This document shows positions 62,129 to 62,724 of a stretch of DNA of 64,000 bases, in pieces. How positions within the stretch are numbered: position 1 is the first letter of the stretch; each line of letters starts with the position of its first letter. Source of the DNA: a virus (taxonomy: Duplodnaviria; Heunggongvirae; Uroviricota; Caudoviricetes); the IMG/VR virus record IMGVR_UViG_3300027996_000012, positions 1 through 64,000 of that record. One strand, written 5' to 3'. The notes below the pieces were generated by a model. That model searched no databases. It saw nothing but the letters and a program-made list of their open reading frames with translations, and was not told where the DNA came from. The position numbers and the translations under genes were made by a program.

Positions 62129-62385
62129 TGGTACTACCACATGGACGCCGAATCCACACGACTTTTGAGGCCGTCCCAGACGGCTGGGAATTTGAGCACC
62201 ACGGATTGAAGTATCAAAGGGAACAAGACTCGTGTGCCTTTAGCAACCTGTGGGCTGAGCCAGGACATGTAGGTCCGATTTGGAATGCGTGCTTGCGAAA
62301 AGGACGCCCGCTTGCGAAACAACGTCGTTTCTGCTTCTACCCTGGAGCAGAAGTAACAATAACCGTACCACAACCACGGGGGTGA
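62128..62385 (+). CDS. hypothetical protein (86 aa)
   Basis: TGATG-coupled. Its 3' end overlaps the 5' end of the tmRNA. Confidence 0.45.
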   Translation: MVLPHGRRIHTTFEAVPDGWEFEHHGLKYQREQDSCAFSNLWAEPGHVGPIWNACLRKGRPLAKQRRFCFYPGAEVTITVPQPRG

Positions 62386-62724
62386 CAGGTTTCGACTGGG
62401 TAAGGGACCCGTATTGCTGCATGTCGTAGTTGGTCGGTGGCCTACGTTAAAAGCCGTCCAAAAGGCTTAACTGCCAAACCTTTATTTGCAACGGCTGCGT
62501 GAGCAGTCCCCATGTAACACTTTTCCGGAGAGATGTTTCATGGGTCGCCATTCCGGATGCTCCCACTGACCTCTGCTGGGTTGTCACGGGAAAAGATTGT
62601 CCAGTAAAAACTCGATCCCACAAGTTCGTCGTTTGACTACGGGCGAGTAAAGCAAAACGACTAAACATGTAGACGCAAGCGAAGAATTTATCACAGGACG
62701 CCGGTTCAATTCCGGCCACCTCCA
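62378..62724 (+). ncRNA. ssrA: tmRNA (ssrA), complete
   Basis: 5' GGGGGTGACAGGTTTCGACTGGG matches the tmRNA acceptor/D-like start. 3' GGACGCCGGTTCAATTCCGGCCACCTCCA matches the tmRNA T-arm and acceptor, and GGGGGTG pairs with CACCTCC. An internal candidate tag frame GCC AAA CCT TTA TTT GCA ACG GCT GCG TGA (AKPLFATAA) sits at 62473-62502. Confidence 0.8.

Follow-up and report, generated by a model that had tools for sequence, protein, structure and literature searches.

Positions 62378-62724 on the plus strand of the window (the whole stretch of DNA analysed here, 64,000 nucleotides long, positions 1 to 64,000 of the IMG/VR record IMGVR_UViG_3300027996_000012) hold a full-length, one-piece transfer-messenger RNA (tmRNA, ssrA) gene that runs from its 5′ G1 to the discriminator base A62724. 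Our sequence analysis makes it very probable that the gene is functional and that it belongs to a large, uncultured genome of phage-like type (~161-178 kb). ARAGORN predicted a tmRNA at 62378-62725, with the tag AKPLFATAA* and the coding part at gene positions 96-125, and the Rfam model RF00023 (gathering score, 47 bits) matched positions 62378-62727 with 124.3 bits (E = 3.8e-48) over model positions 1-374, untruncated. A previous sequence-only reading had proposed a complete tmRNA at this place, a view to be abandoned if there were no covariance match, no pseudoknots or only a fragment. The sequence it quoted at 62378-62724 reads as given, and its proposal is borne out by both calls, the full-model match, four pseudoknots (PK1 to PK4) and an in-frame alanine resume codon (GCC). 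The 350 nt of the tmRNA are 100% identical across at least six independent assemblies (ENA, JGI and Logan) and are therefore no assembly artefact. A minus-strand open reading frame (ORF) that overlaps the gene (62447-62725, 92 aa) is called in no assembly, and we regarded it as spurious.

We placed the canonical elements of the tmRNA by hand and verified their pairings by script, numbering the bases from the first one of the tmRNA (tm 1 = 62378). The elements, with stem 1 and stem 2 of each pseudoknot given as S1 and S2, are:

62378-62384, plus strand: 5′ strand of the acceptor stem, GGGGGUG, with 7/7 pairs to CACCUCC at 62717-62723
62396-62424, plus strand: 5′ strands of helix 2 (H2) at tm 19-27, 37-40 and 42-47, with partners at 62665-62670, 62675-62678 and 62687-62696
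62425-62459, plus strand: PK1, S1 CGUAG/CUACG at tm 48-52/65-69 and S2 GGUCGGU/GCCGUCC at tm 55-61/76-82
62473-62502, plus strand: tag reading frame GCC AAA CCU UUA UUU GCA ACG GCU GCG UGA, from ARAGORN and the Rfam alignment
62493-62508, plus strand: helix 5 (H5), GGCUGC/GCAGUC, with 6/6 pairs and a GUGA loop that holds the stop codon
62509-62557, plus strand: PK2, S1 at tm 132-142/157-167 and S2 UCCGGA/UCCGGA at tm 147-152/175-180
62561-62606, plus strand: PK3, S1 at tm 184-193/206-214 and S2 UGCUGGG/UCCAGUA at tm 197-203/223-229
62610-62661, plus strand: PK4, S1 at tm 233-249/258-271 and S2 GUCGUUU/AAACGAC at tm 251-257/278-284
62700-62716, plus strand: T-arm, GCCGG, loop UUCAAUU, CCGGC, with 5/5 pairs

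All eight stems of PK1-PK4 were located, and in the canonical order. The acceptor strands GGGGGTG and CACCTCC, already noticed as complementary in the sequence-only reading, pair at every position, including the G3:U70-type pair of alanine identity (G62380:U62721). The same reading had pointed to AAAAGCCG...AAAAGGC as a pseudoknot-like element; this segment does lie within the PK1 region, but PK1 is formed by other pairings, and its S2 contains one U.U mismatch in the window copy. An Rfam scan for riboswitches gave no match in or beside the tmRNA gene.

Between the resume codon GCC (62473-62475) and the stop codon UGA (62500-62502) the nine codons of the frame spell AKPLFATAA, the tag that had been read from the letters before; ARAGORN and the Rfam alignment yielded the same peptide, and one relative described below encodes a nearly identical one. 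The resume codon is preceded by UUAACU, which places a U at −5 and an A at −4, a context that we take to be equivalent to U85/A86 of Escherichia coli.

To this single sequence we could add two diverged relatives. The 153-aa protein encoded downstream of the tmRNA led to a single diverged homologue (53% identity), encoded on L021, a Logan contig of 1.3 kb, where the syntenic position (236-591) is occupied by a tmRNA with an Rfam score of 88.4 bits, the tag ANTPLLMAA, 65% identity to the window tmRNA and a non-canonical T-loop (GGGG-AGCAUUA-CCCC). The second, on the contig SDBT01001728.1 (L055), was found by a motif scan of metagenome contigs; its tmRNA scores 131.9 bits with Rfam, carries the tag AKPLFALSA and is 67% identical to that of the window. 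The upstream genes of L055 are syntenic with those of the window (41-48% protein identity) and the immediate neighbours of its tmRNA differ. The tmRNAs of the three lineage members are about 65-70% identical, and their tags all consist of nine codons with a GCC start. Five codons differ between the tags of the window and L055, three of them synonymously, and the residues AKPLFA are kept.

Comparison of these sequences revealed extensive covariation. In the raw two-sequence MAFFT alignment of the window and L021 tmRNAs, 92.9% of the cells pair and 19 pairs are changed on both sides; controls in which the alignment was slid gave 1-3 both-sided pair changes, and 0/500 shuffles reached the observed values. 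In a curated three-way comparison, 96.4% of the cells pair and 30 of the 101 pairs are compensatory, with every stem covarying except PK1-S1, H2d and H5, so that seven of the eight pseudoknot stems carry a compensatory change among the three relatives. At pair 6 of the acceptor stem the window and L055 have U-A where L021 has C-G, a compensatory change, while the G3:U pair is invariant in all three. Helix 2 contributes three compensatory pairs in H2a/H2c, PK1 S2 a change from G-C to A-U in L055, PK2 six pairs in S1 and again a G-C to A-U change in S2 of L055, PK3 three pairs in S1 and two in S2, and the T-arm three. PK4 has seven in S1 and three in S2, and the S2 changes are visible on the raw MAFFT alignment too.

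Taken together, these comparisons show that the tmRNA fold and the tag peptide are under purifying selection in three diverged relatives, which indicates that the tmRNA gene is functional in the lineage.

We then looked at the genes that border the tmRNA:

62128-62385, plus strand: 85-aa upstream gene, called in public assemblies, with a homologue on L021 and no Pfam or PHROG family
62744-63205, plus strand: 153-aa cysteine-rich downstream gene, starting 19 nt after the discriminator base

The stop codon of the 85-aa gene (TGA, 62383-62385) coincides with nucleotides 6-8 of the tmRNA, giving an overlap of 8 nt, and its start overlaps the stop codon of the preceding 121-aa gene (ATGA). Between the 85-aa gene and its L021 homologue the differences at codon positions 1, 2 and 3 number 19, 19 and 47, with 27 synonymous codon changes. 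This pattern identifies the ORF as a real gene, as the sequence-only reading had supposed when it described a tmRNA overlapping the 3′ end of a coding sequence, and the bias towards third positions indicates that the window and L021 genomes are near saturation at silent sites. The upstream stop codon falls inside the tmRNA in all three relatives, as UGA at nucleotides 6-8 in the window and L055 and as UAG at nucleotides 10-12 in L021; for the window and L021 the overlapping ORF has been proven to be a conserved gene, and in L055 it is an unrelated putative ORF of 64 aa. An upstream stop inside the tmRNA was found in none of 13 other phage tmRNA loci and none of eight bacterial loci (the mycobacteriophage loci are not among them), the nearest case among the 13 being one ORF that ends 2 nt before the tmRNA. 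Neither a sigma-70-like promoter nor an intrinsic terminator flanks the tmRNA in a scan limited to these types.

This arrangement suggests a link between the processing of the tmRNA and the fate of the adjacent message, which would be surprising if true. If RNase P released the tmRNA from a transcript common to both genes, the stop codon of the upstream one would be removed, leaving a stop-less mRNA that is itself a substrate of trans-translation. The overlap-processing arrangement resembles the 'tRNA punctuation' of mitochondria. It is doubtful, though conceivable, that the lineage-specific overlap is functional in this sense, coupling maturation of the tmRNA to the tagging and degradation of the upstream protein as a feedback or timing device.

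Around these neighbours we observed some further peculiarities. The 153-aa gene contains a perfect 21-nt tandem duplication (GAGGATTTCTGGTTCACATTC twice) at 62819-62860 on the plus strand, which duplicates the peptide EDFWFTF; in the homologue from L021 the unit occurs only once. The 121-aa protein gene (61763-62128, plus strand) encodes a metalloprotease-like HEVIH (HExxH) motif and has phrog_1233, a family of unknown function, as its sole match. A (PE)n repeat (...PEPKPEPPVITKPEPEPEPEPE...) marks a small protein that is kept in the window (61524-61766, plus strand) and in L055 (2342-2524, minus strand).

The window is part of a ~161 kb contig, and a contig of 177.7 kb carries the same neighbouring proteins. 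We inspected the genes of ~73 kb (the window plus 9 kb downstream) of these ~161-178 kb and found the tmRNA flanked by phage-type or mobile-element genes over 62 kb upstream and 9 kb downstream. Those upstream encode a DUF5906 primase/helicase, ParB, a dCMP deaminase, an SNF2 helicase, NUDIX, ThyX, a class II ribonucleotide reductase, two GT41 glycosyltransferases, an RNA ligase, an RNase T-like exonuclease, an AAA_33 kinase and giant proteins, two of them with Laminin_G_3-type matches; downstream lie tRNA-Thr, a radical SAM protein, tRNA-Asn, a Thg1-like protein, ParB and a DNA polymerase A whose identity to its counterparts in cultured phages is only ~25%. No bacterial housekeeping gene was present in the ~73 kb and no integrase was seen among the neighbouring genes; therefore, the tmRNA is internal to a mobile, phage-like genome, and the flanking genes rule out a host ssrA at the edge of a prophage. 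Three of the genes related to RNA deserve their coordinates:

37397-38980, plus strand: Ro60 (TROVE plus vWA), 527 aa, matching Pfam TROVE (4.6e-37) and vWA_Ro60 (3.4e-61)
55967-57061, plus strand: RNA ligase (PF09414 plus a PHA02142 OB-fold domain), by domain matches
63536-63611, plus strand: tRNA-Thr (UGU), the nearest tRNA gene, by ARAGORN and Rfam

The RNA quality-control theme that the sequence-only reading had attributed to this genome holds up well, with Ro60/TROVE, the RNA ligase, the AAA_33 kinase, the Thg1-like protein, the RNase T-like exonuclease and several tRNAs around the tmRNA.

Several of our observations weigh against a functional tmRNA gene on a phage genome. The covariation set comprises three sequences, its structure was taken from the window copy, and the register of stem 1 in both PK3 and PK4 in the three-way comparison was curated by hand. 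The window copy does not encode the 3′ CCA (...CCUCCA-CUU); the L055 and L021 tmRNAs do encode it, and most Saprospiraceae genes that we recovered lack it. The last residues of the tag are TAA (LSA in L055) in place of the common LAA, so targeting to proteases is not assured. No SmpB partner, which the sequence-only reading had proposed to look for in the phage or its host, turned up in the ~73 kb of phage-like genome inspected, neither as a PF01668 match among the called genes nor by tblastn with an E. coli SmpB query (nothing, E > 0.5); function must therefore rely on host SmpB. Lastly, Pfam and PHROGs revealed no family of capsid, portal, terminase or tail proteins in the visible part of the carrier, and that the carrier is a phage is the best reading of its gene content, not a proven fact.

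Some of these points feed other explanations. The tmRNA might modify or compete with trans-translation in the host, either because its tag gives peptides another fate or because the RNA titrates host SmpB. The three lineage tags do differ from the common bacterial ones, and from each other, at the last three residues that are critical for proteases, the phage genome shows no SmpB over the length inspected, the T-loop of L021 is non-canonical, and Hudson et al. note that a phage molecule consisting only of the tRNA-like domain (TLD) could inhibit tmRNA by titrating SmpB. However, an SmpB decoy would not need an mRNA-like domain, a resume context, a stop codon and four pseudoknots, all of them kept with compensatory changes, and, as in degradation tags, the final A of every tag in the lineage comes after a small or hydrophobic residue; we hold this alternative to be unlikely. 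A decaying remnant, that is, a captured host ssrA or an attP-type fragment devoid of a function of its own, is extremely improbable. It is common for temperate elements to use ssrA as an integration site and to take its 3′ portion along (Buchholz et al.; Hudson et al.), and the window copy lacks the CCA, but the gene is full length (model 1-374) and not a 3′ fragment, its neighbouring genes include no integrase, and neutral decay is excluded by three relatives that, at 65-70% identity, keep 96% of the pairs, 30 compensatory pairs and the tag frame. Covariation among three sequences thus speaks for phage tmRNAs selected for the full pseudoknot architecture and the tag peptide, and not for decaying captures.

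The carrier, in turn, could be a plasmid, a phage-plasmid or a mis-binned piece of chromosome, and the tmRNA a cellular or plasmid-borne ssrA. Such a carrier would account for the missing structural families, for large ORFs at 43-18432 that found no match in PHROGs, the phage collection (tblastn) or PDB sequences, and for three ParB-like genes (two in the window and one downstream); Al-Shayeb et al. also note similar sets of translation genes on large plasmids. We nevertheless judge it improbable. Besides the lack of housekeeping genes, the genes are dense, overlapping and mostly on one strand, PHROGs matched the primase, exonuclease, ParB and pyrophosphatase, Ro-like homologues occur in 362 phage records of the phage collection, and giant Laminin_G_3-type proteins are typical of tail fibres. 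Several samples yielded almost the same contig, at lengths of up to 161-178 kb. None of the bacterial tmRNAs recovered exceeds 50% identity to the one studied here, and 185,579 species genomes contain no exact copy of it.

For the functional phage tmRNA that we favour, we infer a processing route, the use of host SmpB, alanyl-tRNA synthetase and proteases, and a benefit for the phage, as follows. The tmRNA would most likely be transcribed within a polycistronic message, because the 8-nt upstream overlap and the 19 nt to the next gene leave no room for a promoter or terminator of its own. RNase P would cut at G62378, trimming of the 3′ end would follow, and the host CCA-adding enzyme would be needed to complete it because only ...A-C is encoded. 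Alanyl-tRNA synthetase could then charge the molecule via the G3:U pair and, with host SmpB and EF-Tu, the tmRNA would move into ribosomes that have stalled on mRNAs which are broken or lack a stop codon. Translation would switch to GCC (62473), add AKPLFATAA and end at UGA (62500), freeing the ribosome and marking the tagged peptide for host proteases. The phage would benefit by keeping ribosomes available during infection.

To place the tmRNA among known sequences, we searched several collections. A blastn search against 50,697 phage records gave no match for the tmRNA, and exact patterns of both its ends were absent from IMG/VR, from the 185,579 species genomes and from JGI metagenome contigs. 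A looser TLD pattern retrieved 13 contigs from IMG/VR, 11 of which (11/13) ARAGORN called as tmRNAs; the nine one-piece calls and the two uncalled matches are only 39-51% identical to the window tmRNA, and we rejected these contigs as close kin. An 18-mer spanning H2-PK1 had 12 matches in IMG/VR, but eight of them were chance matches inside protein genes. At the protein level, IMG/VR searches with the neighbouring proteins, singly and as an alignment, yielded no relatives, and the 85-aa and 121-aa neighbours matched only themselves in a collection of 5.8 billion proteins.

Two groups do share parts of the molecule. The H2-PK1 motif GCAUGUCGUAG-N12-CUACGUWAAAA occurs in 10 of the 185,579 species genomes, and eight of these ten are Saprospiraceae or Bacteroidota metagenome-assembled genomes; in seven of the eight ARAGORN found a tmRNA whose tag (GNTSFAVAA or the like) has nine residues and is encoded at positions 96-125 or 97-126 of the gene. 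The common motif and the resemblance in tag length and shape made us consider a Saprospiraceae host. We set it aside since the tmRNAs, at 47-50% global identity, are no closer to ours than unrelated ones are, and since a strong Shine-Dalgarno sequence in 15 of 23 genes and a −7 motif (TAnnTTTG) that is not enriched speak against Bacteroidota. The other group consists of two-piece (permuted) tmRNAs on metagenome contigs (L049-L066) and in IMG/VR (L005-L007), which lie beside tRNA arrays on marine-type contigs. With these the one-piece tmRNA of the window has in common a 5′ TLD-H2-PK1 core, about 75% identical over 75 nt for those on metagenome contigs, which also have in common with it a 3′ H2-TLD part, about 77% over 65 nt; in the three permuted tmRNAs from IMG/VR, 30 nt of the 3′ end are identical. 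As a weaker reading, the one-piece tmRNA and the marine two-piece tmRNAs could belong to a phage-propagated lineage and not stem from repeated captures from hosts, because the shared TLD-H2-PK1 core is almost absent from bacterial genomes.

Unusual T-loops were seen in other phage tmRNAs as well. Those of L021, L024, L029 and L035 have no UUC motif in the T-loop; ARAGORN misses all four (4/4) and Rfam scores them at 87-95 bits. In L024 (6727-7166), L029 (2724-3156) and L035 (1749-2188) a T-stem CGGC/GCCG closes a loop of the type UAUCGUAU, and by eye L024 has an apparent tag frame of ~32 codons.

Phage-borne tmRNAs are already documented. Buchholz et al. found them in 402 of 18,146 phage genomes (2.3%), with only 2.5% of the one-piece phage tmRNAs in marine phages; Hudson et al. 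describe them in Bxz1, ET08, other mycobacteriophages and Bacillus phage G, and Al-Shayeb et al. (2020) report tmRNA and SmpB in huge phages. The tmRNA studied here is a well-supported new example, from a lineage that has no cultured relative. Cluster C mycobacteriophages (Bxz1, ET08, Cali and Catera, among others) and Bacillus phage G likewise combine a complete one-piece tmRNA with a large (~155 kb) genome and many tRNAs, and a Ro-like RNA-binding protein of ET08 and its kin is the best cultured-phage match of the Ro60 found here (38% identity). Since ET08-type phages have both a Ro-like protein and a tmRNA, the occurrence of a tmRNA together with tRNAs and Ro is a shared feature, and one with a precedent. 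Their tmRNAs, in contrast, show no detectable nucleotide similarity to ours in the blastn search of phage records, and the cluster C phages differ from the genome studied here in GC content (~50% here) and sample source. The marine two-piece tmRNAs of Melnitz and the pelagimyophages are also phage-borne, come from aquatic samples and lie near tRNA genes, but they are permuted, whereas the one described here is a single piece with four pseudoknots. In the huge phages of Al-Shayeb et al. (2020) the tmRNA is likewise part of an expanded repertoire for translation and RNA maintenance; those phages have SmpB alongside, unlike the ~73 kb inspected here, and the genome of ~161-178 kb is below the 200 kb threshold for 'huge'. 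Bacterial ssrA (RF00023, e.g. of Saprospiraceae) has the same architecture and length, but beyond the low identity to the Saprospiraceae genes the acceptor stem differs, and the tmRNA here lies among genes of a mobile element and not of a chromosome.

The current picture of trans-translation is unchanged by this tmRNA. What it adds is that the set of tmRNA, tRNAs, Ro60 and RNA repair known from the cluster C mycobacteriophages recurs in an unrelated element from aquatic or environmental samples, which lends weight to the view that large phages are equipped with tools to sustain translation when RNA is damaged. Congruently, the proximity of Ro60, the RNA ligase, the Thg1-like protein, the kinase and the tRNAs to the tmRNA suggests a toolkit against RNA damage, such as that caused by host RNA-cleaving defences.

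Finally, we noted other features of the carrier genome that relate to RNA. Past the window end, the contig L001 encodes at 11539-14343 the radical SAM protein, tRNA-Asn and the Thg1-like protein (of the tRNA-His guanylyltransferase / 3′-5′ polymerase family), which extends the RNA-repair theme. At 35513-35619 on the plus strand, which is ~1.8 kb upstream of the Ro60 gene, YrlA (RF02553), a bacterial family of Y RNA-like molecules, is matched below threshold (29.3 bits; gathering score, 69; E = 0.0055) along the whole model length; this element could be a partner RNA of the Ro protein. Directly after tRNA-Met, a tRNA-like element of 64 nt (29500-29563, plus strand) has a miniature anticodon arm and scores 32.8 bits with the Rfam tRNA model; a further tRNA of 90 nt (30048-30137, plus strand; 36.1 bits), which ends in ...GCCA, has ~23 extra nt near the anticodon loop and may contain an intron or be otherwise unusual. 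ARAGORN made no call for either. Between the two, a small ORF (29527-30057, plus strand) encodes a Val_tRNA-synt_C arm (PF10458, E = 1e-9) without a synthetase catalytic domain. Elsewhere, the two GT41 glycosyltransferases are neighbouring large proteins (52072-55970, plus strand; 706 and 596 aa by the longest ORF) whose C-terminal domains are of the O-GlcNAc-transferase-like GT41 type, and a methyltransferase (PF13489) is encoded just upstream of them.

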